Source of the DNA: a virus
Length of the DNA stretch: 64,000 bases
Strand: one strand, 5' to 3'
Virus genome (UHGV): UHGV-0375936
Below the pieces are notes generated by a model. The model was not told where the DNA came from. It was given only the letters and a program-made list of their open reading frames with translations, and did no database searches. Positions 24,739 through 41,576 of this stretch are shown here, piece after piece (the stretch's first letter is position 1; every line of letters begins with the position of its first letter). The translations under genes and the position numbers were made by a program.

Positions 24739-24945
24739 TTCCCCTTTTTCTTACGTTGTTTTTATATATTGTGACCTGACGTTGGTAAAACTTTTTATCA
24801 ACACTTTTCTTAAACCCATCGTTTAGTTAAGCAGGCCACTTTTTTTCGCGCACTCTACTCCTCCCTACGGGGAGGAGCTATCTTATGCTTCGGTTGTAAC
24901 ACACGTCGGTCTTAGACCACTAACCTTTTGAAATGGAGAGCTGTT

Positions 24946-25155
24946 ATGTCTATTAAAGAGTTCTCTTCTGCTGAGCATATTCCAGAAGAGTTTAAGAAAA
25001 TCGGTAACGTTAGCGCTTTCGGCGATACCGTTGATCATGTAACTGGTAAACTGGCTGCTGAAGCTGAAAAAATTGGCGGCGACGCATTCAAAGTTATCGG
25101 TATTTCCGGCAACAACAAACTGCACGGTAACGCGATTGTCTACAAAAAAGACTAA
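24946..25155 (+). CDS. small DUF1471-like (YdgH/BhsA/McbA-type) domain protein
   Basis: GGAGAG RBS then ATG; KIGNVSAFGDTVDHVTGKLAAEAEKIGGDAFKVIGISG...NAIVYK matches that small-domain pattern; no signal peptide. Confidence 0.45.
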   Translation: MSIKEFSSAEHIPEEFKKIGNVSAFGDTVDHVTGKLAAEAEKIGGDAFKVIGISGNNKLHGNAIVYKKD

Positions 25156-25156
25156 G

Positions 25157-25216
25157 CGAAAAAAAAAACGTGCTACTCCTACCCTCTAAGAGGGTAGGAG
25201 GTTACTTTATTTTTTT
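25157..25216. terminator. bidirectional Rho-independent terminator
   Basis: Hairpin TCCTACCCT-CTAAG-AGGGTAGGA flanked by A-run and T-run between convergent genes. Confidence 0.6.
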
Positions 25217-26469
25217 CGTGCTCTAAAGCGATGCATTTCTAAATACACTTTTTCCCAGGGACCGAATGGACCGACGATTGCTTGCGCGTCGTTAATCTTC
25301 TTCTGATTATACCACCGGGCTTCACGAAAGACGTAGTTTTGACTGTCGAACTCTGTGGTGTTAAATACCCACTCACCCTCCTCCCATGTAGGCCAATAGC
25401 CCACCGTCTTTCCGAAGCGGTTGTTTAAGTACCCTAACGGTTTTTCAGAATCAGGATCGTTAGGGTCCTTGAGATAACAACGTCCCCAAACTGCGTTATG
25501 CGATACACCCACAACCTCTTCTTCTAAATACGGATTATCTACCGTAAAGATAAACGAAGACTCGTGGAGTAAAAGCGCCTTTAATGTTTCGGGGTTGCGA
25601 ATACGTTGGACATTAGTAGGTGTTGATAAATCCCCCACACCGATGGCGTCCCAGTCGTAATAGCGACGGGTTTCCAGAACGGTCCGCGCAAGATCAAAAT
25701 TCGGTAAAGAAATCATGATCGCACGGTCGGAGAAATAACCGCCCGGAGGCAACCAACGTAACAGTCCACCGATGACGAAACCCACCGTTTTTCCCGTAAT
25801 AGATTCGGGTAGCGAAATCATTAACGTGGAGTAATAGTCACGTGTGGTGTCGAGCTTGTTTAGGGTAAGGTTGGCAATGGGGTAAGTTTTAACATTCCCT
25901 AACTGACCAAAAACCATACAGCCGATATCTGGCGTACAGGCCCTTCGTACAATTTTACCGGCCCCGGGTAATCGGACACCTACGGTATCTGTCTGATGCG
26001 CTACCCATTGACCGTTAATGTTGTACAGTACACTATTACGGTATTTGTCCTTCCACTTGTCCTCACAAACGATGACAACGTCATCAGCATCATCTAAGCT
26101 GAAATCTTGACTGTGGTGGTACCCCGGCGGACACAGGTACGTTTCAACGGGCACGTCAGCATTAATCGATTGGTAATGTGCCCAACTGAATTCGAGTTTC
26201 GGCAATCCGGCCTTTAGAGTGGGGATGACGTTTCCGGCTTTTTCATTTAACCAATCTTGTAAAGTGTCTGTTCGGTTTTGTAGTTCGGCAAGATGGTATT
26301 GGCTGACTAACGTATAGTCTTTACCAAGTGCACTTAAACCGATCTCAAAGGTGTGGTAGTCTGAACACAACGTATTTAAGGGTTGCGTGACATCGATGGC
26401 TCCCCAGGTACGGGACTCTCGAGAGAAGCCAAAAGCGCTGTCGGGCCGCACTTGATAAGCAGTAGTCAC
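25207..26469 (-). CDS. hypothetical protein
   Basis: 420-aa ORF, lone minus-strand gene diverging from the fibre genes. Confidence 0.55.
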   Translation of the reverse strand: MTTAYQVRPDSAFGFSRESRTWGAIDVTQPLNTLCSDYHTFEIGLSALGKDYTLVSQYHLAELQNRTDTLQDWLNEKAGNVIPTLKAGLPKLEFSWAHYQSINADVPVETYLCPPGYHHSQDFSLDDADDVVIVCEDKWKDKYRNSVLYNINGQWVAHQTDTVGVRLPGAGKIVRRACTPDIGCMVFGQLGNVKTYPIANLTLNKLDTTRDYYSTLMISLPESITGKTVGFVIGGLLRWLPPGGYFSDRAIMISLPNFDLARTVLETRRYYDWDAIGVGDLSTPTNVQRIRNPETLKALLLHESSFIFTVDNPYLEEEVVGVSHNAVWGRCYLKDPNDPDSEKPLGYLNNRFGKTVGYWPTWEEGEWVFNTTEFDSQNYVFREARWYNQKKINDAQAIVGPFGPWEKVYLEMHRFRARKK

Positions 26470-26537: not shown

Positions 26538-29500
26538 ATGGCTGTCGTCCTAGACCCACACTTCAAAAAACCGGGGAATAAAATAACCGGTGAAGCGGTC
26601 GCCGTCATTGGTACGAAATACCGAATGTTGGTACCTGCCCACGCCCCTTTTTTCACCACATCCCTGGTGGTCAAGAGCGGCGGCAAAACACTGACCTTAG
26701 GCGACGATTACATTATTACACACCCGTACGAGACCGGTATGTTGCGCACAGCCTATCTCATTCACGGGATGATTTGGATTGTTAATGACAAATACAAATC
26801 GAATTTTACGGTAGATTACCACGCCGTTGGTTGTGGTCAGGCTACCCAACAACAGATTACCGCAGAACGCGAACTCAATAAAGATAAATACCCGACTACG
26901 TGTCAGTGGGACACCGTCATCGGGGACGTTTACTTTCCGCCGGTCGATATCCAGTTCGATTGGGAGAATTGGAAAGGTGAACTGGAATTAATGCAGGCTA
27001 TTGCTGGATTAGGCGATTCGTTAGGGGAAGTCGTGAGTCGACTTAACCCCATCGCACGCAATACCCTGGATTTAGAATACCGTGCTAACAGCAAGGTTAT
27101 CACTTCCGAGCAGTATGCCGCATACGACAATAAAGGTGGGTTCACCTACAACACTACCCGTCATCGTTATAGCTTGAGTTATAAAACTGCAACCTTTAAC
27201 GACTACGCCCTGTCAGTGAAACATAGAATTCCTGCTATTCTGCCAGACATGACGAAATTGAATCCAAACGAACAGATCGATTGGATGCTCTGTTATGCTA
27301 ACGGCGGGGCAAGTATTCTACGGCTGCAGCTAAAACAGCGCAAAATCTCACTGGTCTTAACGGTCGCTATTGGTAGCGGTTCAACAAACTACGATTATAC
27401 GTTAATCAACGGTTTAACTGACGATGAGTTAAAAAACGATATCGATTTTAGTGTAACCCGTCAACCCGGAAACGGTGTTTACGTCATCGTAGTAAAAACA
27501 AATAAACAGACCATGGATTACACATTCAACGTCGATACGCCGCCTGATGAGTTCTCGGCAGGGTATTCGAAAACGGATGTTGCTAAATGGTTGAAGTCTA
27601 AAACGAACATTAACCTGAACTGGTATGCTGGACAAAAAGATTATGTTCAAATTCGTTCTTTACCCGGCGCACCAGAACCTGACGTCGACAACGATGTTTA
27701 CCAGTTAATAGTTAAATACCATCAATTAGTTGAGCAGCTGTATCGTAACGCGCCTGCACACGAACACGTTACACGTAAGGACAACCCGCACACCGATACG
27801 TGGGGCCCGATCCGTGCGTTACAGCTGAATGGTATTGCGTCGGATGCCGCGTTAGCTTACGGGAAAACGAAACAACAGTTAACGGATTATGTTAATGCTA
27901 AGTACCCAACACAAGCAACGTTAACCGCACAGAAAAAACTGCTTCGTGAATCGGCGAACAAGAACGTTAACGGCACGATTACCACACTTCCGGGTTTTAC
28001 TTCGTTCACGACGGAAGTTGATCCGGTTTCGATGTCGAAATACGTGAGTCCTAGTTTTAGCGAAAGCTACGTTAGTAATGGTCACAGGTATCACGGTGCG
28101 CTTCGTTACACAGGAACGAAAAGCGGTTTCAGTGCTAACTTTAATGCGGTGCCTGCCAACCTGCAAGATATTGACTTTATTGTTACCGGACGTAAAACAG
28201 CGTCTGGTAACGAAGCTGTCGGTGCAGTTGGTTTGCGTTTCTACGAAAACCCCGGTAGTAACTCCGGTAAGTTTGTAGAGATTAACGGACAAATCTGGGC
28301 TGGTACCCTTACTATCAGTCTGACATTGAACGGTTACGGGAGTCCGTTACCGTCGGTGCGTTATATTTCTCAAGCCCCTAATCCGGCAATACCGGATGGA
28401 GATTTTACGCTACGTTTTCAACTGAAGCGTACAGGGAACGTGTTTGACGTCGTTATTACCGTAAACGGTAAAACGTATAGCGCCCGGATTAACTTCAATA
28501 ACATGGACGCTGCGTTAGAAGCATTAGAGAATCAGCACCACTTTAAATCGCTGATCAATAATGTTGCCGATGGCGTCAAAATTAGTTCGCAAAACAAAGG
28601 TAACACGGTTACCATTAAGAAAGCACCGGATGTCGTTGACGGAACTCGTTTAGGTGCCCAGTTTGTCGTTGATCCGAAATCCATTAAGTTTATTGGCCAA
28701 GGTTCAACTGATGTTAACGTAGGAAATAACCCCGTAACGTTCCAAGCAGGTACTAACCAGCTTATGTTGTATCCTGACGATCGTGGGTTACAGTGGCGTG
28801 GTAAAAAACTCTTAGACCCTACCACCGTGGCCCCGTATCTGCCAGGTAATACCGCAGGTGGTACCGGTTTATTCTACGCAAGCTCGACAACAACAGTTAC
28901 GATCACTGGTAGCGGGATAAAAGCTTCGCCGTTCGTAGCGACCTTTATTCTCCCTACCGCGACCGATACAACGGCTCTGGCAGCTTGGCAGTTGACCGAT
29001 GAGTTCGGTACTGCTGAAAACCTTGCAGCAACGCCAGCACTGATTGAAAAACTGGATGCGGAGTTCACCGGTAAGTTAGTTGCAGTTAAATCGTACATTA
29101 ACGACATGCAGCTTACCAGCTCGGTTACTATCGATAAGATTACCTTCGGTTTAGGTAATGTTGCGAATACGCCCGATGTCAATTTACCGATTTCTACAGC
29201 ACAGCGTGCGGAGTTAGATAAATACTCGCCTAAGGTTCACCAACACCCGTTTACCGCTTTTGGTACCGGGAACGCAACCACAGCGAAACGCGGTCTGATT
29301 AAATTTGGTCTGGATGTGGATGATGCGACTTTAGCACTCGATGGGAGTGTGGTAATGGCGCAGACTTCCCAGATTGAAAAATTGGAGAGTGCTGTCGGCG
29401 GCGTTGACTCGGAGGCACGTCTTGATATCATACGTTTTGGTGAGTCTGGTAACGACTTAATAGACGTTACGGTCAAAGACAAAATTCTGGTCACGCTTCC

Positions 29501-30860
29501 AGCTTCAACGTATTTTATCGGTGGCGAAACGTACACCGTACCGTTGATGACGATTAACGTTAGTGAACGTTTTCCGAAATTGAATACAGAGATCTACGCG
29601 GGGATTTTTGTTGATATTGTTGATAACAAAGCGAAGTATATTATCCACGACAGCTACAGTCAGGCCGAAACGGATACCATGACGCGTGTGGGGTTGATCG
29701 GCGTCAACGACCTTTCTGAGGTGTTCGTTACAGAGATGCGTAATGTCACACGGTTGGGTGATTTCCGTGAACTGAAAGATCATAAAGCCGATGACAACGC
29801 ACACATTCAGCGCTCCGCATCACGTGCAGCGCTTGGGTTAGCTAACTTAACCGTAGGTGCGCCTTGCTGGGCTTCTGGACTCCAGGCAGTAGTACGCGGT
29901 GAAGCAGATTGGCGTTATGTTGCCGGTGGACAGTATAAAGCTTTAGACGGGGTGAAATACGACCAGCTCGCATCCAAGTGGATTTTTGACGCGAAAGGGG
30001 TAAGCGATAACCTACACGGGTTTATCCACAACATGTTCCCAGCTTTTAAGAACGCAGGAATGCGGGTAAGTTGGGAAACAGAAAGCAACGCAAAAACCGG
30101 CACGGTGTTAGAAACTGTTTTAGGTTGTTGGAAAAACACCGACGGCGAGTTTATGCGGTTGTCGTTACTTATCACTCGTGGTTATCGTTTAACTGACAGC
30201 AACGGTGAGTATTGTTACGCAGGGTTCGGTTTGAACTTCGGTAGCGGGAAATCGGTAGTGTTAGGTTTCACACCAACGAAGCGTGTTACGCCTGCACCGT
30301 GGAATACGTTACAACCTGACGTAACGTTTACCCACACCCGTGCTGCAAATAACGCATTAACGTTTAACGCAACACTGACCTTAGCGGGCACTACGTATAC
30401 CGTCGTGGTGTTTTTATCTGCGACAGATAAATACGTAAGCTGCACGGCAGCAGGGGGAGCTACGCAGAAAATCCCTCTAACTGACCGTTTAACAGGGTTC
30501 AACCTCGCACCTATCGTTAACGATCCGTATACCCCTATTTACTACGGTTTAGGGGGACTTTATGAGGATGAGGTTCGTGCCAACATCCGTTCTACGGCAG
30601 ACAGCGCAACCGCGAATAAAGTCTACGGTACGTTGTTAGACTATATTAGCAACTATTCCTCATTAAATCGTGTGCGCGTTATGGAATTGAGCGGTGTCAG
30701 TTCAGACCCCGAAACGCTTAATGCGTTAGTGGCAACTGAATTTAATAACAACCTGGCGGATTACGCCGCGTTACCGATACCTTCTTATCTTAACAAGGAG
30801 CGCGTAATGTCGTTTATCGACACCAACAATAAAGTGCAGGCGGTAATCATTCGCGATTAA
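26538..30860 (+). CDS. tail-fibre-like protein (paralog 1 of 4)
   Basis: 1440 aa; N-terminal PFF...G..L.LG.DY domain shared with next three genes; T4 gp34/gp12-like repeat (NATTAKRGLIKFG). Confidence 0.65.
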   Translation: MAVVLDPHFKKPGNKITGEAVAVIGTKYRMLVPAHAPFFTTSLVVKSGGKTLTLGDDYIITHPYETGMLRTAYLIHGMIWIVNDKYKSNFTVDYHAVGCGQATQQQITAERELNKDKYPTTCQWDTVIGDVYFPPVDIQFDWENWKGELELMQAIAGLGDSLGEVVSRLNPIARNTLDLEYRANSKVITSEQYAAYDNKGGFTYNTTRHRYSLSYKTATFNDYALSVKHRIPAILPDMTKLNPNEQIDWMLCYANGGASILRLQLKQRKISLVLTVAIGSGSTNYDYTLINGLTDDELKNDIDFSVTRQPGNGVYVIVVKTNKQTMDYTFNVDTPPDEFSAGYSKTDVAKWLKSKTNINLNWYAGQKDYVQIRSLPGAPEPDVDNDVYQLIVKYHQLVEQLYRNAPAHEHVTRKDNPHTDTWGPIRALQLNGIASDAALAYGKTKQQLTDYVNAKYPTQATLTAQKKLLRESANKNVNGTITTLPGFTSFTTEVDPVSMSKYVSPSFSESYVSNGHRYHGALRYTGTKSGFSANFNAVPANLQDIDFIVTGRKTASGNEAVGAVGLRFYENPGSNSGKFVEINGQIWAGTLTISLTLNGYGSPLPSVRYISQAPNPAIPDGDFTLRFQLKRTGNVFDVVITVNGKTYSARINFNNMDAALEALENQHHFKSLINNVADGVKISSQNKGNTVTIKKAPDVVDGTRLGAQFVVDPKSIKFIGQGSTDVNVGNNPVTFQAGTNQLMLYPDDRGLQWRGKKLLDPTTVAPYLPGNTAGGTGLFYASSTTTVTITGSGIKASPFVATFILPTATDTTALAAWQLTDEFGTAENLAATPALIEKLDAEFTGKLVAVKSYINDMQLTSSVTIDKITFGLGNVANTPDVNLPISTAQRAELDKYSPKVHQHPFTAFGTGNATTAKRGLIKFGLDVDDATLALDGSVVMAQTSQIEKLESAVGGVDSEARLDIIRFGESGNDLIDVTVKDKILVTLPASTYFIGGETYTVPLMTINVSERFPKLNTEIYAGIFVDIVDNKAKYIIHDSYSQAETDTMTRVGLIGVNDLSEVFVTEMRNVTRLGDFRELKDHKADDNAHIQRSASRAALGLANLTVGAPCWASGLQAVVRGEADWRYVAGGQYKALDGVKYDQLASKWIFDAKGVSDNLHGFIHNMFPAFKNAGMRVSWETESNAKTGTVLETVLGCWKNTDGEFMRLSLLITRGYRLTDSNGEYCYAGFGLNFGSGKSVVLGFTPTKRVTPAPWNTLQPDVTFTHTRAANNALTFNATLTLAGTTYTVVVFLSATDKYVSCTAAGGATQKIPLTDRLTGFNLAPIVNDPYTPIYYGLGGLYEDEVRANIRSTADSATANKVYGTLLDYISNYSSLNRVRVMELSGVSSDPETLNALVATEFNNNLADYAALPIPSYLNKERVMSFIDTNNKVQAVIIRD

Positions 30861-30873
30861 GGAGAATTTTTTG

Positions 30874-33800
30874 ATGAAAGCGTATCCTTACGATCCTCGG
30901 GGGACGAAAGCCGAGAATCACTTCTTAGAGGAGCGTATCATCGGGTCAGAGAACAACAACGATCGGGTGGTGATTTTAGACCACCGCCCGTTCTTTGAAG
31001 ATTTGGTCGTCAGACAACCAGGTTCAACCACCCCACTGAGTCGTGGGGTGGACTACGAACTGCAATATCAGCTGACGGAACTGGATGACTCGGTAGCAGC
31101 CAACGTGTATTGTGGGGTACACCTTATCAACCCATCCATCAAAGGCATCGTAACCTTTGAAGGACAAATGCTCGGCGGTACGTTCTACGACCCGTTTGTT
31201 GATATTCTCGATGAACTGGTGAAATATTTGAATAACCCTGTCAGTGCTGACTGGTTGTTATTAGACGGTAGACCATCGTTATATCCAGCGACGCCAGCAG
31301 CAACGTCCTGGGCGGATTTGCTGAACAAAAAATATTTAGCGTCGGCAGTTCACGATATTGAATTGAAAACCGACGACGCTAACCAGTTAATTAAAGACAA
31401 ATTAGCTGAAGTTAAAGCGTTAGTGACTGCGTTGGGTAAAGAAATCGAAGCATTTAACTACCCGGCACATATCGCGGAAACCAACCCACACAAAACCACA
31501 TCCGCGCAGATTAACGCGCATCCTGTTAACTTGAAAACACCCGACACCTTTATGGCGTACGGGTTAAAGTTGAAAGCGCTGACGGATGAGCTGAAAGCGT
31601 TTCGTTTACCCCAGTCAGTTATCGACACGTATATCTCTCACTGGATTTCTTCGGAAGTACGTGGCGTGTTTAACTGTACGGTGTCAGGAAACCGCGCACA
31701 GTTCCGTTCGAAAAACGGTGAGTCAGAAATCATTTTTGCCAACGATGGTTTTACGTTAAAATCCAACGGTTCTGTGGTATTAGCGGTAGGGCATCTGGAA
31801 GGTACGGGTGCAGGACGTTACATTAATTGGCGTGCCGGTAAAAACACATTACGCATCGAGTCAACAGGCGATGCTTTAGGGATGAACAAACTCACCCTGA
31901 ACGGTAACCCGTTACTGACTACCACGGCGTTGATGGAATACCAACAAGATCCAGATGCGGGTTCTGGTGGCGGTGGCGACCCTGATGACTCGAAGGTGTA
32001 CATTGAAGGCCGTAATGGGATTAGCTTTACCGGTAAAGGTTCTCGCGCCGACCCTATCGTGGGGACTATCGACCCAACAAAAGCGACAACCGCCGAAAAA
32101 GGCGTCGCTAAACTTAAAACAGGTAAAGGTACAGAAACGACTGGGGTTGCTGCAACTCCGGCTTCGTTAGCACCATACTCGACTGACCTATCGGGGTATG
32201 TGGCTAAAACGACCATGATTAACGGTAAGCCGATGAACGACGGCTCCAGGACAATCACGAAAGCTGATCTGGGGTTAGGGCAAGCGAATAACACCGCAGA
32301 CGTTGACAAACCGTTGTCTACCGAGTTAAATGCGGCGCTTAGCGGCTTAGCGGATGCAGGCCACCACCACGATTGGTCGGAACTCGGCATTTATAAAGCC
32401 TCGCAATCCGTTTACGGTATCGGTCGTTACGCAACTAACCAGAACGGTTTGGTTGAAAACCGTGCGGTAGTACCGAACATCTTAAAAGAACTTTCGGCGC
32501 GTTTAGATGTGGTTGCTGCGGCGATTGCAAACGCGAAAGAAGGATCGGTAACGGATTTCGCTGCGGTAAAAGGCGCAGAGTGGCGCTTTAATAGTCAGGG
32601 TACGGCAATCTCCGTTCAAGATTTGAAGTATTTCTATTTGCTGAACGGTACGAAAGCTGATAGCACCGTTACAGGTTCGATTGACCTGCAAACTACGCCG
32701 ATGTTTAACTGGTTCTCACCGAACAACCAAATTGAGACGACTTGGCCTACGGGGAAAGTGAGCGCTGGTAAGGGTATTAACTGGACAGGTATTGAAGAAC
32801 CACCACTAATGGGTTTCCAATCTGTTCCGGTAGGTAAAACTGCCTCACAGATGGGTGACCAGTCAGTTGTTACTGTGTTGGCCAAAACGCGGGTAAGGGC
32901 ACACCAGTCGAAGCTTTGGGTTTATGCCGCAGGGGGTGGTCCGGTTACAGTTTACATTAACGGTATCCAGGCAGCCACAGGCCAGTCTCCACTCGTTGCA
33001 GTGCATGAAACATCAGCAGACGTTGAAAACTACACCGTAGCGGTTAAAGCTGAGTGTAGCGACACAGCTAAATCCGCAGCGGTGCAATTCGAAATTTACG
33101 ACGGTGACTACCCCGTTTATTTCAGTGGCCCTGAAACGCGCGTAGAGCTTCTCCAAGAGTTTGTTACAACACACGTAGGGATTCGTCATTATCTGTACGT
33201 TAACATGCTCACAAGCTCTCTGTATTCGCGTACTGAGCCAATTCAGAGTGTTGCAGTTGATCCTGAGCGCGGTTATATCGGCTACGTTGATATTGTTGCC
33301 GGTGAGTCTTACGCGAATAAGAGCGTGAGTTTTGAAACCACGTTTGATTTCGGGAAAAGTGCCGAGGTTAGTGAACACATTGACACACGCAAAGCACACG
33401 GACTCAGCTCTGTAGACTGGACGTTAACGGATAACCCACGTTTCCCGTTATTAAATCGTGCGATTGCAGAGCCGAGAACGTGTATTTTTAGAAAAACGTT
33501 AACGGCCGGTACTGGTGACGTTTTTCATCTCGTGAGTCGTGGTCTTTATACTTACGCACATAACCAAAACGTGAAGTCCAGTCTTCAATACGTTGTGATA
33601 CCTGAAGGTGCTACACCGTATTGCTGGTTTACGCCGTTTAACCCGAAAGAAAACAACGCACCGACGTTCGAAGGTTCGTTTGTGTTCGACGTTGACGACG
33701 TCGGTGGAACACAAGCGCTCACGGCTGCACCGGATTTGGTGCTGTGTACGTCAACACAAGGTAGCAGCGTTAAACGTCGTTACGTACGTATTGACCTAAC

Positions 33801-35055
33801 TGCCAAAGCGTGTAAGCTGGGGATTGGTTCTCGTTCAGATTCTGCGGTTACGGATATCCCGTTAGTGATGGAGGAATCTGGGGAAACGGCGGTGGCGGCA
33901 ACGTTTAAGGATGTGTTGTTCAACGGCGAGGAAACCAACGCAGCGATACTCGACTTGATAGGCTGGGGTCCAAATAAAGACAAAATCTCTGCAAACCACG
34001 CGCCACGAGGTATGATTCGTTATCGTTACAACGTAAACACTCGGGTATTACGTTTAGCACTATCGTTCTCACAGTTCGGAACGACAACAGTTAAGCACCG
34101 CCAGTTGGAAATTGAATTTCCGTTTGATTTGGTGGATTACTTCACCGGTGACGGTGTAGGATTGTCGTTTAAAGAACTGTCTGCGAAATGCCGTGTAACG
34201 ATTAGCCACGCACTGATTGATCCGGTTACGACTAAAATCGATATTGATAAGTATCATTACCTACGCTCGTTATTTGAGTCGTATTTGGATGCATCTGTTG
34301 GTTATTTGGCTGATACCAAAGACGCCGACTTTAACCAGTCTGTGATTGACCCTGCGACTTATGAGATTAATCAGAAATACCGCGTTACCGAAAGCATTGC
34401 GCTGCCGACCGGTCAGGGAAGTGTTGCTGTTTCCCATGACGGTCAGTTACCTGCACAGTTCTTTGACCGTAAGCTGTCTCGCGGTGCTTTGATGGCCAAG
34501 AAAGGTGAACTTCATACTTCCTGGAACAATGAGTGGAGTACATCCAAAGCTGCCGCAAACCGGTATCGACATAAACTCATTCTGCGCTTTGCACAAGGTG
34601 CTGATAAACAACAGTACCGTGTTGCAAAAGTGACAGGAACGGTGAAGTGTAACTGGCCGGGCAAGGTGATTATCGGTGATGCTGGGAAGGACGCGTATGT
34701 ATCAGCTATCGATAGCGTGCCGTTTGCGCTTTCGACCAGCGCGGACACAGGTAAAGCAGTTACCCTTACGCCAAAGGATCTACGTGTAGGGCAGGACATT
34801 TATATTGTCTTAGAACCACCAGGCAATAATCCAGAAGGCTACGAGCTTAACTTTACCTGTTCGTTAGATGTCACTGACGAGAAAGGTGTCCGTCAAGACC
34901 AGCTCAATGCGCAGAGTTTCGAACTCCGTAGCGGCGAAAGTCAGTTCTTAATGGAGAAACGCAATCCGTACCACATCACGAGTAAAGCGTGGAAGTGGAT
35001 TCTGGCTGTACTGAAACGAGAACTTAACGGGAAGCAGTTAGGGGATCGTACTTAG
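30874..35055 (+). CDS. tail-fibre-like protein (paralog 2 of 4)
   Basis: 1394 aa from ATG after AAGGAGAA; shared N-terminal domain; repeat ATTAEKGVAKLKTGKGTETTGVAATPASL. Confidence 0.65.
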   Translation: MKAYPYDPRGTKAENHFLEERIIGSENNNDRVVILDHRPFFEDLVVRQPGSTTPLSRGVDYELQYQLTELDDSVAANVYCGVHLINPSIKGIVTFEGQMLGGTFYDPFVDILDELVKYLNNPVSADWLLLDGRPSLYPATPAATSWADLLNKKYLASAVHDIELKTDDANQLIKDKLAEVKALVTALGKEIEAFNYPAHIAETNPHKTTSAQINAHPVNLKTPDTFMAYGLKLKALTDELKAFRLPQSVIDTYISHWISSEVRGVFNCTVSGNRAQFRSKNGESEIIFANDGFTLKSNGSVVLAVGHLEGTGAGRYINWRAGKNTLRIESTGDALGMNKLTLNGNPLLTTTALMEYQQDPDAGSGGGGDPDDSKVYIEGRNGISFTGKGSRADPIVGTIDPTKATTAEKGVAKLKTGKGTETTGVAATPASLAPYSTDLSGYVAKTTMINGKPMNDGSRTITKADLGLGQANNTADVDKPLSTELNAALSGLADAGHHHDWSELGIYKASQSVYGIGRYATNQNGLVENRAVVPNILKELSARLDVVAAAIANAKEGSVTDFAAVKGAEWRFNSQGTAISVQDLKYFYLLNGTKADSTVTGSIDLQTTPMFNWFSPNNQIETTWPTGKVSAGKGINWTGIEEPPLMGFQSVPVGKTASQMGDQSVVTVLAKTRVRAHQSKLWVYAAGGGPVTVYINGIQAATGQSPLVAVHETSADVENYTVAVKAECSDTAKSAAVQFEIYDGDYPVYFSGPETRVELLQEFVTTHVGIRHYLYVNMLTSSLYSRTEPIQSVAVDPERGYIGYVDIVAGESYANKSVSFETTFDFGKSAEVSEHIDTRKAHGLSSVDWTLTDNPRFPLLNRAIAEPRTCIFRKTLTAGTGDVFHLVSRGLYTYAHNQNVKSSLQYVVIPEGATPYCWFTPFNPKENNAPTFEGSFVFDVDDVGGTQALTAAPDLVLCTSTQGSSVKRRYVRIDLTAKACKLGIGSRSDSAVTDIPLVMEESGETAVAATFKDVLFNGEETNAAILDLIGWGPNKDKISANHAPRGMIRYRYNVNTRVLRLALSFSQFGTTTVKHRQLEIEFPFDLVDYFTGDGVGLSFKELSAKCRVTISHALIDPVTTKIDIDKYHYLRSLFESYLDASVGYLADTKDADFNQSVIDPATYEINQKYRVTESIALPTGQGSVAVSHDGQLPAQFFDRKLSRGALMAKKGELHTSWNNEWSTSKAAANRYRHKLILRFAQGADKQQYRVAKVTGTVKCNWPGKVIIGDAGKDAYVSAIDSVPFALSTSADTGKAVTLTPKDLRVGQDIYIVLEPPGNNPEGYELNFTCSLDVTDEKGVRQDQLNAQSFELRSGESQFLMEKRNPYHITSKAWKWILAVLKRELNGKQLGDRT

Positions 35056-35093
35056 GACAGACTGCCTGCGGGCAGTTGTGTGTCCGTAGGTAA

Positions 35094-35130
35094 CCCCTCC
35101 CTGTAATGGGGAGGGGTATCCATTTTATTT
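35094..35130 (+). terminator. intergenic hairpin / possible attenuator
   Basis: CCCCTCCC-TGTAAT-GGGAGGGG hairpin with T-rich tail between fibre genes 2 and 3. Confidence 0.45.
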
Positions 35131-35149
35131 AAAAGTAGGAGTCTTTACG

Positions 35150-38100
35150 ATGCCGAGAGAAGACGCGGCGCAGTTTAACGGTACGCTAAGCACAACGACG
35201 TACCCTAACCGATTTAACGTGGTCATTCCGCCTGAAGGACCTTTTTATCGTATCGGATTAAAACTCACAGTAGCCGACGATACCGCGCCTAACGGACGTC
35301 GTACTCTGATTGAGGGGTTGGACTACTATTTAGGCTATTACTTTAAAGAACTCGCAGAAGCTGAACAAGATCAGATTTATGGCGGGTTTATGTTGCTTAC
35401 TGCAACAGAAATCGAATATGAGATTTTAGGGGTAGCACGTCAATACCGTGTACCGCAATCTGAAATCGGGAAGTTCTTAGTTCGTACTGACCTGAAAGAC
35501 CCACGTAACGTGGACTGGTCAGAGTTAATGGCGTATGCGCCAGTTATTCAACCTATCGATCCCCCTGCTAACTTAGAAGAAGCTATCCTGAGGGATGAGG
35601 TTGTTAAAGCGTTAAACGATATCCGTAAGAAAATCATTCAACGTTCAACAGAGTTAGATGCAGCGTTTACCGAAGTCACTAACCTGATTTACGAGAACGG
35701 TAAAAAGATTTTCGATGAAGAACTATACCAACACCACCTTAATCCTAACGCTCACCAGTATACGACCACTGATGTTGGTGCTCTTCCGGTTTTGGGACGT
35801 GCTGTTGACGCGACAAAAGCGTTTGGACTGACGATTGACCAGCTGGCTACGCTGATGGGTTCGGCGGGTATTGAGCAATCAGACGTTGATCAGTTAATAG
35901 GTGAAGCCCTCGGCACTGTTTACGGTCGTTGGGGCAGCACGAACGGTAACGAACTGACGTTTAAAACCGCAGGCGGACACATCATCAGTATCCGTGGTGA
36001 TAAGTGGTTAATTACCTCACCGCAACCGTTGGTGATTAAAGCAGACCAGGACAACAACGAATCGGGTTTGGCGGTTGAATTTAGTGCGGGGCTGAATACG
36101 CTTTGGGTACACTCTGGGACAGAACAAGATGTATTAGCGCCGGTTTACAACTCTGTGTATTTGGTTACACCAGAAATGGTGAACATGTACCTTACGTCTG
36201 TAACGTTACTTGAAGCAAATGCCTATTTCAAACCATCAGACACCGTAAAACCATACGGTACAGCGAAGCAGTCTAATCCGCTAACGTTGAACGCGAATAT
36301 CCCCACAGCAACCGAGTCGGTTTATGGGGTGTTTTCGATTACGAATATCGCAACCTCCGTAGCACTAGGCACTGCTATTTCCCAAAAGGCGGTGACCGAA
36401 TTAAAAGACCGGTTAGACTTGTACGTTGACGATGACTACACGGTTAACGGTAAAGGGTTTGTTAAGACAGGCGATAAAATGGTGTTAACCTTAACGAAAA
36501 CCGATTTCGGTATCGATAAGATGGATAACACCACGCCGATCGCTAAACCGGTAACAAAAGCGTTAGCGAATGTGCTGAAAAATAAAAGTTTGAAGGTGCA
36601 TACGCACACTACCGCCGATTTGGATAATGTCCCGATTGGTAGTGCGACCGTGGATGGTATCTTACAGCTGTGGGATGCGATTGATACCACGAATGATAAA
36701 GCCGTCACATCACGCCAAGGGTGGTTGTTCGCAAAAGAGATTAAGAAGGTCTCTGATAAACTGAATACCCTCTTGCCCGCATGGACAACGTCCGGGAGCA
36801 AATACACCAATAATTCGATATTGCCGATCTTGTCGATGGGTAATTACGAAGGTTATGGTAAAAACATGGATGCGCTCCAGATGGTTATAGGGGTACAACA
36901 AGGTAAGCTTTATGCTTTAATTAGTTCTAAATCTGCCCTTCCGGGAACTGAGGGTATTTATTACGCTGTTGCTGGGTTAAAAAACGACAAAAGTCTCGGT
37001 GAAATTTACAAAACAACTTTCCGTTATAAGCCGAAAGGGTTAGAGACGAATTATCCGGGGGTGGAACTAAAAGAAATTACCGTTACTGGCACCGAAGCAT
37101 TTATAGCGAAGGGCAGCGACGATAATTATTATTTAGTTAAACTGAACGGTTCAATGGATTACACCAAACATACCGATGTCAGGTTGGTAACTTTCTCAGA
37201 ATTTGTTTCAGAAACAACATGGGAATTTGTGCCGAATATGTTCATGGATCGTGTGGTCATAGCCGATAACGGCGTCTATGTTTTGCGTACGATGCTAATG
37301 GCCGATCTGAAAAACAATAGTCTGGTGGACTACATTAAGGATACTCCGCAACCTATGTTCCGTGTTGGGTTATTGCGACTTAATAAAACCGATCGGTTTG
37401 AACAGGTTGATTTAAGCTCTACACGAAAAATCGGTAAGTGTGCCGATTTGGTTGAACCTGGCGCGTTCGATGTAGATAATCCGAATACGAAGCGTCTTGC
37501 CTACTTCACTGCGGAAGGCAAAGCGTTGTGGACAGTGAATTTACAATTAACTAGAGGGGTGTCAAGATGGATAACGCCCGTTGTTAAGGACGGTCACTTG
37601 TTAACCGTCGGCGTGTCTGGCGTTTGTCTTGGTTTTTCTTCAACGAAAGGTACCACATTCGGGCCATGGAATGGTGCTTATCGTCTCGACCTATTAACCG
37701 GGGAGGTTGGGTTAGAGACAACTAACATCTTCCCAATCAAAATCGATACTACAGGTTGCTACTTAAAAGACGGAACAAAAATAGAGCTGAAATGGAAATG
37801 GGCTACTCGAAGTTCTGGCTATATGGCCGACAATAGAATCTGTGTCGGTGATATGGTTTATTCTTGCTGCTGTTCGACAGAAAAACAACTTGCACCGTCT
37901 CTCCATTACCAGAAACTCCCAGAAGGAGTTAGTTATCTGGACTATGTTAAGTTGAGTGCGGGGTATGAGGGGCAATCTACGTTTGAAAATCGGATAAACC
38001 CTGTGGTGGGTTCGGTGTGGAAACCGTCTATGACCTTCCCATTGTTCTTCCCAGGAACAAACAAAGTATGGCTTAAACATCAAAAAACGGCTTATTTCAT

Positions 38101-40336
38101 TGAAGCCGAATATGATAAAGATACGACTTATGGTTATCCTGGATACGGCGGGTTTGGACCAACATCCCGCCGTGTTGAAAAAAAAGCGAACGAATACGGC
38201 GTATTGACAAATATACCGCTGGTTGTTACGCCAGACATACCGAAAGGTCTACTAGATGGGGCTTACTTTATCGGTGCTGAAAGTAAACCATGTAAAGTTG
38301 TTTACGGTACCACTACGGTGGCTAGTGATCGGTTGTCTATCGATGCGGCAGAATGGGCGAAGTTGACTAATATTGTTCAGTCCAGCCAGTTCTCTGGGGC
38401 TTCTAACGGCAACGCCTATGAGCGGATTAGCGTAGCTAAGACCAAAAAGAACAACTACAGTTTGTCCTTTTGGGTGCTTGGTCAAACGATGTCTGGTGGT
38501 CCGCTTTGTATCGCGATAGTGAGTCTTATCTATAAAGACACTGACGGGGTAAATAAGTTTGCTTTTTACTTCTTTCAGGTAAAACCGACTATAACCAACG
38601 GGGTCATAAGGTTCGTTAGTTCGGAAGCGAGAATGATGACGTTCAGGGAAAAAGTGGCCAGTAACGCCATTAATCTCTCACCCACAGCTTTTAATGGTGA
38701 ACTTAAACAACGCTCCGGTCAAGTTTTCCTTTATTCGCAAGACGGACAAAAGTTCAGATTCTCAATACATAACCTGGTTGGCGGGAATCTTGTAGGATCA
38801 GAGATTTCTTTTGCTTTTGGGATAAACTTGACTAAAAAAGGAGAATGGTTTACCGGCGAAATTCATCGGGCGTGGGGCTATACGTATACGCTGAATAATA
38901 CATCTGAAGTCTATATACCCGATCTCTCGGGCATCGCGCTATTGACTTGTAACTCGGAAGATTTAAACGAGTTGTATCTCGGTGGCGAACAGTATAGAAT
39001 CTCTGATTTGTTTAACAAAAAATATACTGTTATCGATAAGATTATTATTGGCGGCGTACAAACACAGAGCGGTTGGAATTTCTATCTGACGGAGGAAACC
39101 GAGTTAAGTTTTGGAAATAAAAGATATACCGTTCCAAGATGGTCCGTTGATTTAAGCGATGAATTCCCGACTAATCACGCTAACCAGACATTCTACGTTT
39201 ATGCTGAAGTGGTCGGTTCTACTGCCCAATACCGCATCGGTTTAGAGCAGTTAGCTGATACCTCGTCGAGACTGTTTGTTGGGACAGTAACCACTGATTC
39301 GAACCGTATTACGGATATCAGTATCGATAAAGTAAAACGGTTAGGTCGTGTAAAAGAGCTGGAAAATCATGCCTCGGTTGTTGATCAGCACGATGTGGCG
39401 CAGGCGTTCGACAGGAAAACTGGTCCACTATTAACAGTGGTTAATAAACCCGTTAAAGCCATTACAGCATCTGCGAGCAAGGGTGCTGGGTATGTCGATG
39501 GCCAGAAATGGAATACGTTGTCCGGGATTGCAACGCGGCCCAGGTTGCCGGTACAGGAAACCTATTCAGGTTATAAAAGTATCAGCAGGGTGGCGTATGA
39601 GAACTGCGCTGACCAGTTCTGGCAGAAAGCGGTTGCTGCGAACGTTGCAGCGGCTACTGCTTCTGAGAACAAACAAGCAGCAACCGCGAACATGAAGTGG
39701 TTGGGTGCGTATACGAAACCGACTACCGGCGAGTATGCATATCTGGCATTGAGTCTGCGTGTTAAAGTACCTGGCGATCCTGGTACTACTAATCGTCGAC
39801 TGAAAATCAGGCTTGCGGCCCCGACAGGTATAACTCAAGTTCGTTACGGGCTAAATCAGTCTGGCGGTACGATGACTGAACAGACAGTAACGCTAACTGC
39901 TAACAGTTACCTGGAAAAAGAACACGCGGGATTTAAGCCAGCCGCCGAAGTCCGCCTTCATGCTACGTTTGTCATTCCAAAAAATGAATACGATAGCTAC
40001 CGGACCAAATTTGGTGCTGTTCAGCTGATTGACGTTGAGACGAACACTGTCATTAAACAGACAGATATCGACACACCGTTTATCGTGTACACCGCCACAG
40101 AGCAAGCGGCACAATCTGGTTTGGTGTATAAAGCGGTTAAGAGTCAGTTTCGTCAACTCCCGGCTCAACCTGTCGTCATTGTAACTGATGGACAGACAGG
40201 GACTACACCACCGGTGAAAACCGCATATTCTGACGGCACGTTAACGGTCTACGTGGCAACCACGTACGATGCGGTTAACCCAGCACAAACTCGCGATATC
40301 GATAAGCTCCAGTTCAATCTTATGTTTACATCTTAA
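35150..40336 (+). CDS. tail-fibre-like protein (paralog 3 of 4)
   Basis: 1728 aa; AGGAG RBS; shared N-terminal domain (PPEGPFYRIGL...GLDYYLGYY). Confidence 0.65.
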   Translation: MPREDAAQFNGTLSTTTYPNRFNVVIPPEGPFYRIGLKLTVADDTAPNGRRTLIEGLDYYLGYYFKELAEAEQDQIYGGFMLLTATEIEYEILGVARQYRVPQSEIGKFLVRTDLKDPRNVDWSELMAYAPVIQPIDPPANLEEAILRDEVVKALNDIRKKIIQRSTELDAAFTEVTNLIYENGKKIFDEELYQHHLNPNAHQYTTTDVGALPVLGRAVDATKAFGLTIDQLATLMGSAGIEQSDVDQLIGEALGTVYGRWGSTNGNELTFKTAGGHIISIRGDKWLITSPQPLVIKADQDNNESGLAVEFSAGLNTLWVHSGTEQDVLAPVYNSVYLVTPEMVNMYLTSVTLLEANAYFKPSDTVKPYGTAKQSNPLTLNANIPTATESVYGVFSITNIATSVALGTAISQKAVTELKDRLDLYVDDDYTVNGKGFVKTGDKMVLTLTKTDFGIDKMDNTTPIAKPVTKALANVLKNKSLKVHTHTTADLDNVPIGSATVDGILQLWDAIDTTNDKAVTSRQGWLFAKEIKKVSDKLNTLLPAWTTSGSKYTNNSILPILSMGNYEGYGKNMDALQMVIGVQQGKLYALISSKSALPGTEGIYYAVAGLKNDKSLGEIYKTTFRYKPKGLETNYPGVELKEITVTGTEAFIAKGSDDNYYLVKLNGSMDYTKHTDVRLVTFSEFVSETTWEFVPNMFMDRVVIADNGVYVLRTMLMADLKNNSLVDYIKDTPQPMFRVGLLRLNKTDRFEQVDLSSTRKIGKCADLVEPGAFDVDNPNTKRLAYFTAEGKALWTVNLQLTRGVSRWITPVVKDGHLLTVGVSGVCLGFSSTKGTTFGPWNGAYRLDLLTGEVGLETTNIFPIKIDTTGCYLKDGTKIELKWKWATRSSGYMADNRICVGDMVYSCCCSTEKQLAPSLHYQKLPEGVSYLDYVKLSAGYEGQSTFENRINPVVGSVWKPSMTFPLFFPGTNKVWLKHQKTAYFIEAEYDKDTTYGYPGYGGFGPTSRRVEKKANEYGVLTNIPLVVTPDIPKGLLDGAYFIGAESKPCKVVYGTTTVASDRLSIDAAEWAKLTNIVQSSQFSGASNGNAYERISVAKTKKNNYSLSFWVLGQTMSGGPLCIAIVSLIYKDTDGVNKFAFYFFQVKPTITNGVIRFVSSEARMMTFREKVASNAINLSPTAFNGELKQRSGQVFLYSQDGQKFRFSIHNLVGGNLVGSEISFAFGINLTKKGEWFTGEIHRAWGYTYTLNNTSEVYIPDLSGIALLTCNSEDLNELYLGGEQYRISDLFNKKYTVIDKIIIGGVQTQSGWNFYLTEETELSFGNKRYTVPRWSVDLSDEFPTNHANQTFYVYAEVVGSTAQYRIGLEQLADTSSRLFVGTVTTDSNRITDISIDKVKRLGRVKELENHASVVDQHDVAQAFDRKTGPLLTVVNKPVKAITASASKGAGYVDGQKWNTLSGIATRPRLPVQETYSGYKSISRVAYENCADQFWQKAVAANVAAATASENKQAATANMKWLGAYTKPTTGEYAYLALSLRVKVPGDPGTTNRRLKIRLAAPTGITQVRYGLNQSGGTMTEQTVTLTANSYLEKEHAGFKPAAEVRLHATFVIPKNEYDSYRTKFGAVQLIDVETNTVIKQTDIDTPFIVYTATEQAAQSGLVYKAVKSQFRQLPAQPVVIVTDGQTGTTPPVKTAYSDGTLTVYVATTYDAVNPAQTRDIDKLQFNLMFTS

Positions 40337-40376
40337 CGCCACGAGACAAGGACGTCTCGGATTAAGGAGAGTGGCC

Positions 40377-41576
40377 ATGGCCTCCATTGTATACCAATAC
40401 CCTTTAGATTTAACGGGAACCCTAACCTCTAACGCCGTGGAGCGTCAGGTTACGTTAGGTACAGGTAAAGTTAACCGTGCGTTTGCTTTTCCTGACGGTC
40501 CGTTTTATGCTGATACGTTCCGCTTGCGGGTTGCTAACCGCCCAGATGCGACGTATGAGCGCGGAACGGACTATGAGTTGATTTTTGCACACCCGGCTTA
40601 CGAGAAATTGACGAAGAACCGGGAAGTGGTAATGGCGGTTGTTGTAACGAACACCGCGATTCCGACCGATATCACGGTATCGGCGCAAGTAGTCGGGGGC
40701 CCGCAGTCGGCAAACGTGACTGCGATAGAACAGGCGATTGCTGAGTTGAATCTCGATAATCGAACTGTTGGCTTTAAAGACTTGCGAAATGTTCCTGATA
40801 CATTTCCTTCGGCACCAACGTATAAAGACGTCGGCGATATTTACGGCTTCGAATACATCATTACAGTGCTCGCCGGTATTAAAGATGCGATAACTGCTGG
40901 CGATGCTGTACAGCTTGAGAACATCAAAGCGATTCTCGAAAGCCTGAAAAACGATTTCCTGGACGCGCTGAACGCGCACATTAACGCCACGGGTAACGTC
41001 CACCATCTGGATATTCACCAGGTTAACGGGTTAACAGAAACGGAGATCCGTGCACTGATCCGTGACGTACAGTCTGCCATCGATGCAACCATTACTGATA
41101 TTAATGCGTTGAAGAAAGCAGACGAAGCGTTAGGAAAACGTATTGATGCTGTTGTCAAATCTCTGGAAGCGTGGAACGACCAACTTAACGTCGTTGCACA
41201 AAACTACCAGAAAATGGCACTGGCAATGGCGAACCTAAACTCGTTAGTGTTACAGTTACAGAAAAATATCAACGATCTGAGCACCAAACTCAACCAAGCG
41301 ATTCAACGTATTGCTGCGTTAGAACAGCGGGGTAATGAGTCCGATCAGAAAATTGATAAACTGCAACAAAACCTGGATGCGCTTAAACAGCAGGTTAATA
41401 ATAACACGAACGCAATCAGTCAGGCGAATCAGAACCTACAAAACCATATTGCGGCAGACAACCCACACACAGGCTATCTCCACAAGAAATACGGTGGTGT
41501 GGTTCAGGCTCCAGTGCACGTTAACGCTAACTTGACGTCCCGTGATGACGTTCAGGCAGAAGCGGGTACGAAATAA
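40377..41576 (+). CDS. tail-fibre-like protein with coiled coil (paralog 4 of 4)
   Basis: ATG after AAGGAG; N-terminus FPDGPFYADTFRL...GTDYELIF shares the fibre N-domain; long heptad-like C-terminal region. Confidence 0.6.
   Translation: MASIVYQYPLDLTGTLTSNAVERQVTLGTGKVNRAFAFPDGPFYADTFRLRVANRPDATYERGTDYELIFAHPAYEKLTKNREVVMAVVVTNTAIPTDITVSAQVVGGPQSANVTAIEQAIAELNLDNRTVGFKDLRNVPDTFPSAPTYKDVGDIYGFEYIITVLAGIKDAITAGDAVQLENIKAILESLKNDFLDALNAHINATGNVHHLDIHQVNGLTETEIRALIRDVQSAIDATITDINALKKADEALGKRIDAVVKSLEAWNDQLNVVAQNYQKMALAMANLNSLVLQLQKNINDLSTKLNQAIQRIAALEQRGNESDQKIDKLQQNLDALKQQVNNNTNAISQANQNLQNHIAADNPHTGYLHKKYGGVVQAPVHVNANLTSRDDVQAEAGTK

Follow-up and report, generated by a model that had tools for sequence, protein, structure and literature searches.

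Do four adjacent genes of an uncultured virus encode fibre proteins that share one anchor, and if so, where is this anchor attached? The question is raised by a stretch of 64,000 nucleotides (nt) from the virus genome UHGV-0375936 (hereafter "the window", which always means the whole stretch). Within it, the block from 26538 to 41576 is filled by four co-directional open reading frames (ORFs) on the plus strand, separated by gaps of 13, 94 and 40 nt. The original prediction, made from the letters without database searches, described these as consecutive fibre paralogs with a common N-terminal domain and divergent remainders, and considered them a multivalent adsorption apparatus with interchangeable receptor-binding domains. 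We label the four genes O1 to O4, and the divergently encoded gene just upstream O0; all coordinates are collected in Table 1. The answer that we consider well supported, if short of certain, is that the block encodes a fibre module of the gp131 family of phage phiKZ, which is rooted through its shared anchors under the homolog of phiKZ gp130 encoded by O0.

The placement of the ORFs and the predicted sizes of 1440, 1394, 1728 and about 400 amino acids (aa) were correct on re-inspection, and two start codons could be refined. The mechanically called ORF of O2 (30871-35055) has 1394 aa when counted from a TTG. An ATG at 30874 (MKAYPYDP) is the start in every ortholog, which results in a protein of 1393 aa. 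The mechanically called ORF of O4 begins at 40269, inside O3; here, the ATG at 40377 (MASIVYQYPL) is the start in all orthologs, and the protein has 399 aa.

Profile comparisons confirm that the four proteins share one N-terminal domain of ~170 aa (the anchor). The motifs on which the original prediction was based, PF[FY] and G.DY, are found in all four N-termini, and O1-O4 all have a gp131-like N-terminal domain with the PF[FY], G.DY and VGG positions. When the first 160 aa of all four proteins are aligned, identity to O1 is 17-21%, and the invariant residues include P37, F38, G55, D57 and Y58. When 32 family members are compared, the F and the Y are invariant in all of them, and the positions G, D and G are conserved to at least 90%. 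Pairwise N-terminal identity among O1-O4 is only 14-24%. BLASTP among the four proteins detects an N-terminal match only between O2 and O3 (residues 28-504 against 20-491, E-value 3.5e-16); it also pairs the more distal trunk regions (see below) of O1 with O2 and of O1 with O3. A naive pairwise test of the N-termini would thus fail for most pairs. In formal alignment, which had been proposed as a check, most pairs are insignificant by BLASTP, but profile methods are decisive for all four proteins. The N-terminal part of phrog_2163 (PHROG 2163) is matched by O1 (E-value 4e-18), O2 (1.5e-30), O3 (1.3e-39) and O4 (7e-104), and hidden Markov models (HMMs) from which one paralog was left out recover the held-out anchors with E-values from 1e-23 to 8e-8. 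For hhalign, profiles were built from the 180-aa N-termini of each protein's orthologs from six related phages. Each profile matches the N-termini of phiKZ gp131, gp133, gp134 and gp135 with a probability of 93-99% (E-values 3e-7 to 5e-18), while for direct pairs, the probability varies between 96% (O2-O4) and 2% (O1-O4).

The anchor was also sought in all other ORFs of the window, none of which carries it. Searches of PDB sequences with each protein and with a 32-sequence profile of the N-terminal domain returned no gp131-like chain, and a Foldseek search of the PDB with the AlphaFold2 model of O4, which is of moderate quality, returned no significant match (best E-value 0.02). The C-terminal edge of the anchor (e.g., residues ~125-150 of O2) carries a DW..L...P..FPP motif. 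This occurs twice in a chain of PDB 9d93 ("tail collar fibers, gp4"), which is the only PDB match of the N-terminal domain profile (E-value 3.4e-5). Apparently, this is a short motif that is widespread in fibres and differs from the T4-like units described below.

Judged by protein similarity and gene order, the window is from an SPN3US-like, phiKZ-related jumbo phage, and the block is a conserved baseplate-fibre module. At the nucleotide level, megablast finds only patches of 71-76% identity in Erwinia and Salmonella jumbo phages, which cover 3-7% of the block. No phage record of the INPHARED collection exceeds 76% nucleotide identity to the block, which indicates a separate lineage. The order and orientation of the five genes are conserved in Asesino, SPN3US, phiEaH2, ChrisDB, SPAsTU, pEa_SNUABM_29 and Derbicus, where a 420-aa gene on the opposite strand is followed by genes for ~1240, 1380, 1700 and 400 aa. 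Ortholog identity is 76-81% for O0 and only 40-52% for the giant proteins O1-O3 (hereafter "the giants"); for O4, it is 73-78% to the closer relatives and 65-66% to ChrisDB. Based on published masses and gene order, O4 corresponds to SPN3US gp167 (44.8 kDa, 77% protein sequence identity), O3 to gp168 (188 kDa, 40%), O2 to gp169 (149 kDa, 48%), O1 to gp170 (135 kDa, 45-68%) and O0 to gp171 (47.6 kDa, 76%). Arrangement, orientation and sizes agree, with the difference that O1 from the window is ~200 aa longer, owing to an insertion (residues 497-704).

The relationship to phiKZ is detected by BLASTP, which connects O1 and O2 to gp131 (E-value ~1.6e-8) and O4 to gp135, gp134 and gp133 (1e-12 to 3e-4). 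The N-terminal domain of O1 has 31% sequence identity to residues 11-169 of gp131. O0 is 21% identical to gp130 over 412 aa (58 bits) and matches phrog_3337 (E-value 1e-143). In phiKZ, the gene for gp130 is divergent from those for gp131 (771 aa), gp132 (110 aa) and gp133-135 (~460 aa each). The window and phiKZ have in common the N-terminal domain, a neck helix with an H..NPH motif, a divergent gp130-like neighbour and four paralogs with the N-terminal domain. They differ in that phiKZ has one paralog of 771 aa and three of ~460 aa, whereas the window codes for three giants (1393-1728 aa) and one protein of 399 aa, and identity to the phiKZ paralogs is just 12-26%. A gp130-like gene that adjoins, and is divergent from, clustered paralogs is found in phiKZ, SPN3US, Derbicus, LucasX, 2050HW, PhiEaH1, RP12, RAY and OBP; the window, with O0, has the same arrangement.

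A crystal structure of phiKZ gp131 is said to have been reported by Sycheva in 2012. The C-terminal region of gp131 is a seven-bladed propeller, which we take to be PDB 4GBF. When searched by sequence against PDB chains, O1-O3 gave no match to this propeller, and the distal domain of O1 is predicted to have a different fold, similar to concanavalin A (ConA). The C-terminal propeller defines gp131 itself and not the paralog family.

The basic fact that several fibre paralogs have a common N-terminal domain is already in the literature, for SPN3US family C and for phiKZ gp131-135. SPN3US gp168-170 were published as "paralog family C" (Ali et al. 2017, PMC5694885) and were described as baseplate or tail-fibre candidates which resemble phiKZ gp131. 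As published, this family is limited to these three; by the N-terminal domain, the 400-aa gp167 and its ortholog O4 belong to it as well. By mass spectrometry, gp167-gp170 are part of the SPN3US virion, and in a tailless mutant, gp168-170 went undetected (PMC5694885); this supports an identity as fibre or peripheral-baseplate proteins, in line with the original prediction. For SPN3US gp171, a role as an essential tail protein has been reported, and the family is stated to be present in all phiKZ relatives (Thomas et al. 2016, PMC5105663). The phiKZ paralogs were placed at the baseplate periphery or fibres by immuno-gold labelling and cryo-electron microscopy (cryo-EM). According to the 2026 cryo-EM atlas of phiKZ, there are 12 peripheral fibres, each with a root that consists of six N-terminal domains and a six-helix bundle and is located beneath gp130 (PMC13250141). 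The root is read as three copies of gp131 plus gp133, gp134 and gp135, and it continues into a gp131 trimer (PMC13250141). The docking of gp131-like N-terminal domains under gp130, the homolog of which adjoins the cluster in the window, agrees with the anchor role that the original prediction attributed to the N-terminus. In the Goslar structure preprint, the fibres were not resolved. A transposon screen of phiKZ yielded zero insertions in any of gp131-135; therefore, the paralogs are not redundant.

The anchor is followed by a neck, which consists of a helix and an invariant H-x(4-6)-N-[PAV]-H motif. In the alignment, it is found in all eight proteins (O1-O4 and phiKZ gp131, gp133, gp134 and gp135), so that the helix and the H-x(4-6)-N-P-H motif follow the N-terminal domain here as in phiKZ. 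The neck is located at residues ~175-215 in O3 and O4 and ~175-245 in O2, and is shifted to residues 386-454 in O1 by an inserted cassette. The AlphaFold2 model of O4 has helices at residues 158-173 and 177-203. By analogy to phiKZ, it is most likely the neck helix that makes up the six-helix bundle of the fibre root.

In the giants, a trunk of ~250 aa comes next, which is collinear and nearly free of indels among O1, O2 and O3, with 23-31% sequence identity and hhalign probabilities of 96-99%. Each trunk contains two units similar to those of T4 gp12/gp34, a unit of the type LG[LI]xxxN[TV]xDxxxP[ILV][ST] and an HxH motif. For the LG..N..D unit, there is a marginal match to the Pfam domain PTR (E-value 0.12).

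Repeats in the style of T4 gp34/gp12 had been predicted for several of the proteins. The T4 unit can be written as A[ST]xxxxG[IV]xxLAT...A[IV]TPxxL (e.g., ATETVYGLTRYSTND in gp12). A regular expression for this unit finds five copies in T4 gp12 and six in gp34 but none in gp36, gp37 and gp10. In the window proteins, it finds one copy in O2 (residue 404) and one in O3 (residue 387), where ~0.03 per protein are expected by chance, and the trunk alignment reveals a second T4-like unit at the homologous position in each giant. The units are ATTAEKGVAKL...GVAATPASL and ASQSVYGIGRYATNQ in O2, ATESVYGVFSIT...GTAISQKAV in O3 and ATTAKRGLIKFG in O1. While T4 has five to six tandem units, each giant has two separated units and no arrays. 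Pfam does not recognise the T4-like units of O1-O3, neither at the default threshold nor at E-values up to 10 (nothing useful except for PTR was returned), and with an HMM built from ten T4 gp12/gp34 units, they score within the range of shuffled sequence. The tandem arrays of ~35-40-aa units, recognisable by profile, that distinguish the T4 gp12/gp34 repeat proteins were thus not found. No homology to T4 gp12/gp34 was detected outside the motif, and the anchor is, as far as tested, unrelated to T4 fibre attachment domains. At the level of the motif, the resemblance to T4 is real, but it is not enough to assign the giants to that family; what is left of the predicted repeats is two isolated units per giant.

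Beyond the trunk, conservation drops. When identity by region was computed against orthologs from the six related phages, anchor, neck and trunk were mostly 55-88% identical, and the distal regions (in O1 the last 480 aa, in O2 and O3 the outer two-thirds) mostly 5-50%. O0 and O4 are conserved evenly along their length. This gradient is the pattern expected of receptor-binding proteins that are fixed at one end. For the family at large, a profile of the four window anchors was searched against 1.84 billion cluster representatives. The family has 3133 representatives at E-values ≤1e-3 and 2001 at ≤1e-10. Protein lengths vary from 159 to 2164 aa, and the anchor starts within the first 33 residues in 150 of the 150 listed matches. 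Among 52 diverse members, the Pfam domains found downstream are Peptidase_S74 (in six), PKD (in four) and, singly, Phage_fiber_2, Collar, SPRY, Calx-beta and Ig. The anchor is always N-terminal, and the fibre domains behind it vary across the family, which supports the general notion of a single anchor that is combined with a variety of distal ends.

A distal domain could be characterized for O1. In the AlphaFold2 model of residues 940-1440 (mean predicted local distance difference test (pLDDT) 72), there is a beta-sandwich at residues ~1124-1354, with block-mean pLDDT values of ~76-95. Foldseek relates it to legume lectins, PL7 alginate lyases and the SasG lectin domain (probability ~1.0, E-value ~1e-4). 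The predicted fold is thus the ConA-like lectin/glucanase jelly-roll, which is found in lectins, carbohydrate-binding modules, PL7 and GH16 enzymes. This model is consistent with the binding, and possibly the cleavage, of a surface polysaccharide. The C-terminal 330 aa of O1 are found only in 49 records from the SPN3US/Erskinevirus/Machinavirus clade, always at the orthologous place and with 25-43% identity. We considered a swap of the distal domain with unrelated phages, which is rejected on the grounds of this confinement and the orthologous position. On the sequence evidence, the domain has been diverging at its own place inside the clade instead of having been imported. The distal regions of O1-O3 are unrelated to each other save for a module of ~100-150 aa (residues 994-1139 of O1 and 1296-1460 of O3).

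O1 has two further special pieces. The cassette between anchor and neck (residues 181-360) shares 58-78% identity with SPN3US, against just 10-20% with Asesino, phiEaH2, ChrisDB, SPAsTU and pEa_SNUABM_29. The C-terminal half of O1, unlike the cassette, is closest to Asesino and phiEaH2, so that the gene is a recombinational mosaic. The second piece (residues 497-704) is a clean insertion in the trunk region, which is absent from the six compared phages and present in a clade with ~223-kb genomes (see below); a tblastn search of 50,697 phage records returned zero matches. By eye, it looks beta-rich. An internal duplication was looked for as its source, and none was found.

O4 is built differently. 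After the neck, there is one long helix (residues 221-359, a coiled coil), then a conserved 40-aa tail, and no head; Pfam returned only coiled-coil noise for this protein. The assumption of receptor-binding domains on a common anchor thus finds support in the predicted lectin fold of O1 but does not apply to the headless O4. The tail of O4 (residues 360-399, positions 41454-41573) is 79-87% identical in the six phages, the highest value in the C-terminal half of O4, and holds a second NPH motif (ADNPHTGYLHKKYGG), which points to a site for a specific interaction.

For this locus, homology, domain map, synteny and conservation gradient have been observed. They can be combined with the location in virion and tail and the hexameric root, both taken from the literature on orthologs, by assuming that the same assembly is formed here. 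The beta-rich N-terminal domains and the neck helices of O1-O4 would then assemble side by side to form the root of each peripheral fibre, and this root would dock beneath the gp130 homolog O0. O1-O3 (class A, gp131-like) would run on into their common collinear trunk, from which long, fast-evolving distal regions with host-binding modules extend, such as the lectin-fold domain of O1. We infer that distal domains bind surface carbohydrates. O4 (class B, gp135-like), which has anchor, neck and coiled coil only, is probably a structural partner. The shared anchor more likely reflects obligate co-assembly than alternative heads which compete for one socket, because different paralogs lie side by side in the phiKZ root and because gp131-135 are devoid of transposon insertions. 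The proposed interchangeability of heads is therefore less favoured: the phiKZ paralogs are placed together in one root, and the distal domain of O1 has diverged unswapped.

As a concept, this resembles branched systems in which several receptor-binding proteins of one virion are joined via N-terminal modules and have variable distal domains. Examples are reportedly TSP1-4 of CBA120 and the fibre branches of phiKp24/RaK2. Their adaptor domains are T4 gp10-like or of other kinds, and they use tailspike depolymerases. The common module of the block differs, being a gp131-like domain under a gp130-like protein, and a sequence relationship was not detected.

Several points weigh against the assembly just outlined. 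For the fibres of this phage and of SPN3US, there is neither a structure nor an experiment, and the phiKZ root itself consists of AlphaFold models docked at ~4.5 Å, which the authors call a "candidate" assembly (PMC13250141). The direct similarities O1-O4 and O3-O4 are insignificant by themselves. The AlphaFold2 model of O4 is of mediocre quality (mean pLDDT 64), and O4's N-terminal domain lacks a significant PDB match. Carbohydrate binding by O1 is deduced from a predicted fold alone, and Pfam and PDB sequence searches did not identify a distal domain in O2 and O3.

It is possible, and we would entertain it only tentatively, that each giant forms a homotrimeric fibre of its own, with the shared N-terminal domains plugged into equivalent sockets and with three receptor specificities, a model in line with the multivalent apparatus of the original prediction. 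The gp12/gp34-like and LGxxNxxDxxKPxS units of the trunk are typical of homotrimeric fibres. Except for one small module, the distal parts of O1, O2 and O3 are mutually unrelated, and family members elsewhere bear Peptidase_S74 and Collar, domains which occur in homotrimeric fibres. phiKZ gp131 itself has been modelled as a homotrimer (PMC13250141). However, the unit1 and unit2 fibre sites of phiKZ look alike, each having six N-terminal domains from several paralogs (PMC13250141), and three equally abundant fibre types cannot be assigned in a simple way to 6 + 6 sites. When the semi-quantitative spectral counts from SPN3US are divided by mass, the values for gp168, gp169 and gp170 are 1.08, 1.41 and 1.00, which is near to that of the 12-copy portal (0.93) and does not indicate 18 or 36 copies. 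In addition, independent homotrimers leave O4 without a role.

A more speculative model, which we regard as rather unlikely, is a three-headed hetero-oligomer. It assumes an ancestral root with three subunits each of class A and class B (A3B3), of which class B was triplicated in phiKZ, as follows from the published root model, and class A in the SPN3US lineage. Each of the ~12 fibres would consist here of O1, O2, O3 and three copies of O4 and would have a heterotrimeric trunk and three distal arms. If true, the virion would have one kind of fibre with three heads instead of three different fibres. The class assignment is derived from HMMs of the ortholog groups, those of O1, O2 and O3 scoring best on phiKZ gp131 (43, 33 and 24 bits) and that of O4 on gp135 (57 bits), followed by gp134. 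Classes were compared in nine chimalliviruses, for which only 14-20 kb on either side of each match were inspected, a restriction that counts against the model. They have two to four anchor-bearing genes after the gp130-like gene: three giants and one gene of ~400 aa in SPN3US and Derbicus (as in the window), one gene of 771 aa and three of ~460 aa in phiKZ, three genes in RAY and OBP, and two in LucasX, 2050HW, PhiEaH1 and RP12. In the phages with two genes, the first is of class A (clear in three, ambiguous for PhiEaH1) and the second of class B, which suggests the ancestral A3B3 root. The 3 + 1 gene count shared by the phiKZ and SPN3US lineages argues for the three-headed fibre, as do the collinear trunks of the giants with almost no indels. 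The value for SPN3US gp167 from the same semi-quantitative data is 1.90 and thus exceeds those of gp168-170. It should be noted, however, that this ratio is ~1.6:1 and not 3:1, and by itself does not separate the model from that of homotrimers. Moreover, the classes are based on bit-score differences at ~20% identity and are ambiguous for PhiEaH1, RAY and OBP.

That the N-terminal resemblance is due to chance or composition and that the genes code for unrelated large structural proteins is hardly conceivable, even though most direct BLASTP pairs are insignificant and hhalign gives just 2% for O1-O4, because this is ruled out by the leave-one-out HMMs, the phrog_2163 matches and the phiKZ profile matches of all four proteins, by 2001 family representatives at E-values ≤1e-10 and by the identical domain position and invariant residues in 32 sequences.

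Table 1. Features of the fibre gene cluster and its gp130-like neighbour (positions refer to the window).
Feature	Position	Strand	Description
O0	25207-26469	-	420 aa; phiKZ gp130 / SPN3US gp171 homolog; divergent from the fibre genes; proposed docking platform of the fibre root
O1	26538-30860	+	1440-aa class A fibre paralog; SPN3US gp170 ortholog
O1 gp131-like N-terminal anchor	26538-27017	+	residues 1-160
O1 cassette between anchor and neck	27078-27617	+	residues 181-360
O1 neck	27693-27899	+	residues 386-454; helix and H-x(4-6)-N-P-H motif
O1 insertion, ~200 aa	28026-28649	+	residues 497-704
O1 trunk	28680-29432	+	residues 715-965; collinear with the trunks of O2 and O3
O1 distal domain	29907-30599	+	residues ~1124-1354; predicted ConA-like lectin/glucanase beta-sandwich
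O2	30874-35055	+	1393-aa class A paralog; SPN3US gp169 ortholog; anchor 1-165, neck ~175-245
O2 trunk	31771-32553	+	residues 300-560; distal part of O2 variable
GC-rich hairpin followed by U tract	35093-35117	+	located between O2 and O3; may be an intra-cluster terminator or attenuator
O3	35150-40336	+	1728-aa class A paralog; SPN3US gp168 ortholog; anchor ~15-170
O3 trunk	36002-36784	+	residues 285-545
O4	40377-41576	+	399-aa class B paralog; SPN3US gp167 ortholog; nearest to phiKZ gp135/134; anchor 1-170
O4 coiled coil	41037-41453	+	residues 221-359; followed by the conserved 40-aa tail

A few observations concern the surroundings of the fibre genes. The gap between O2 and O3 (35056-35149, 94 nt) has a predicted fold of -45.8 kcal/mol (z = -6.4 against shuffles), which includes a GC-rich hairpin of 11 bp (35093-35117) with a U-rich tract after it. 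Similar hairpins are located at 24858-24877 and 25176-25200. The three hairpins may be terminators, attenuators or RNA-stability elements in the fibre operon. Between a baseplate assembly gene (23773-24738) and O0, there is a small plus-strand ORF (24928-25155, ~69-75 aa). Its counterpart in close relatives is YdgH/BhsA-like (PF07338/DUF1471), and it is conserved in SPN3US; this is a bacterial-type stress/periplasmic family, which is found here inside a tail module. Just downstream of the cluster (43716-45945, plus strand), there are two adjacent radical SAM genes (307 and 440 aa; phrog_1802), the position of which is kept in SPN3US, phiEaH2, ChrisDB, Asesino and Derbicus.

Close relatives of O1 are numerous. 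Dozens of cluster representatives with 90-98% identity are encoded on contigs of ~220-227 kb, which are from metagenomes and from assemblies labelled as Salmonella enterica (several serovars), E. coli and Shigella sonnei. An SPN3US-like clade of ~223 kb, common but uncultured, is thus indicated. It is found together with enterobacterial isolates, be it as a carrier state, by pseudolysogeny or as a contaminant.

With the gp131-family module rooted under the gp130 homolog as the preferred reading, what is new here is the assignment of the 400-aa protein to the family, the map of neck and trunk, the cassette and the insertion of O1, its predicted lectin-fold domain and the tentative two-class model. 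The gene counts in chimalliviruses lead to a concrete, testable model, in which the lineages of phiKZ and SPN3US elaborated a hexameric root in different ways. The map separates anchor, neck and trunk, which are probably fixed by assembly, from the cassettes and distal domains, which are free to vary, and is of use where the host range of a jumbo phage is to be engineered or predicted. The cluster is a probable host-range determinant of a widespread uncultured SPN3US-like clade.

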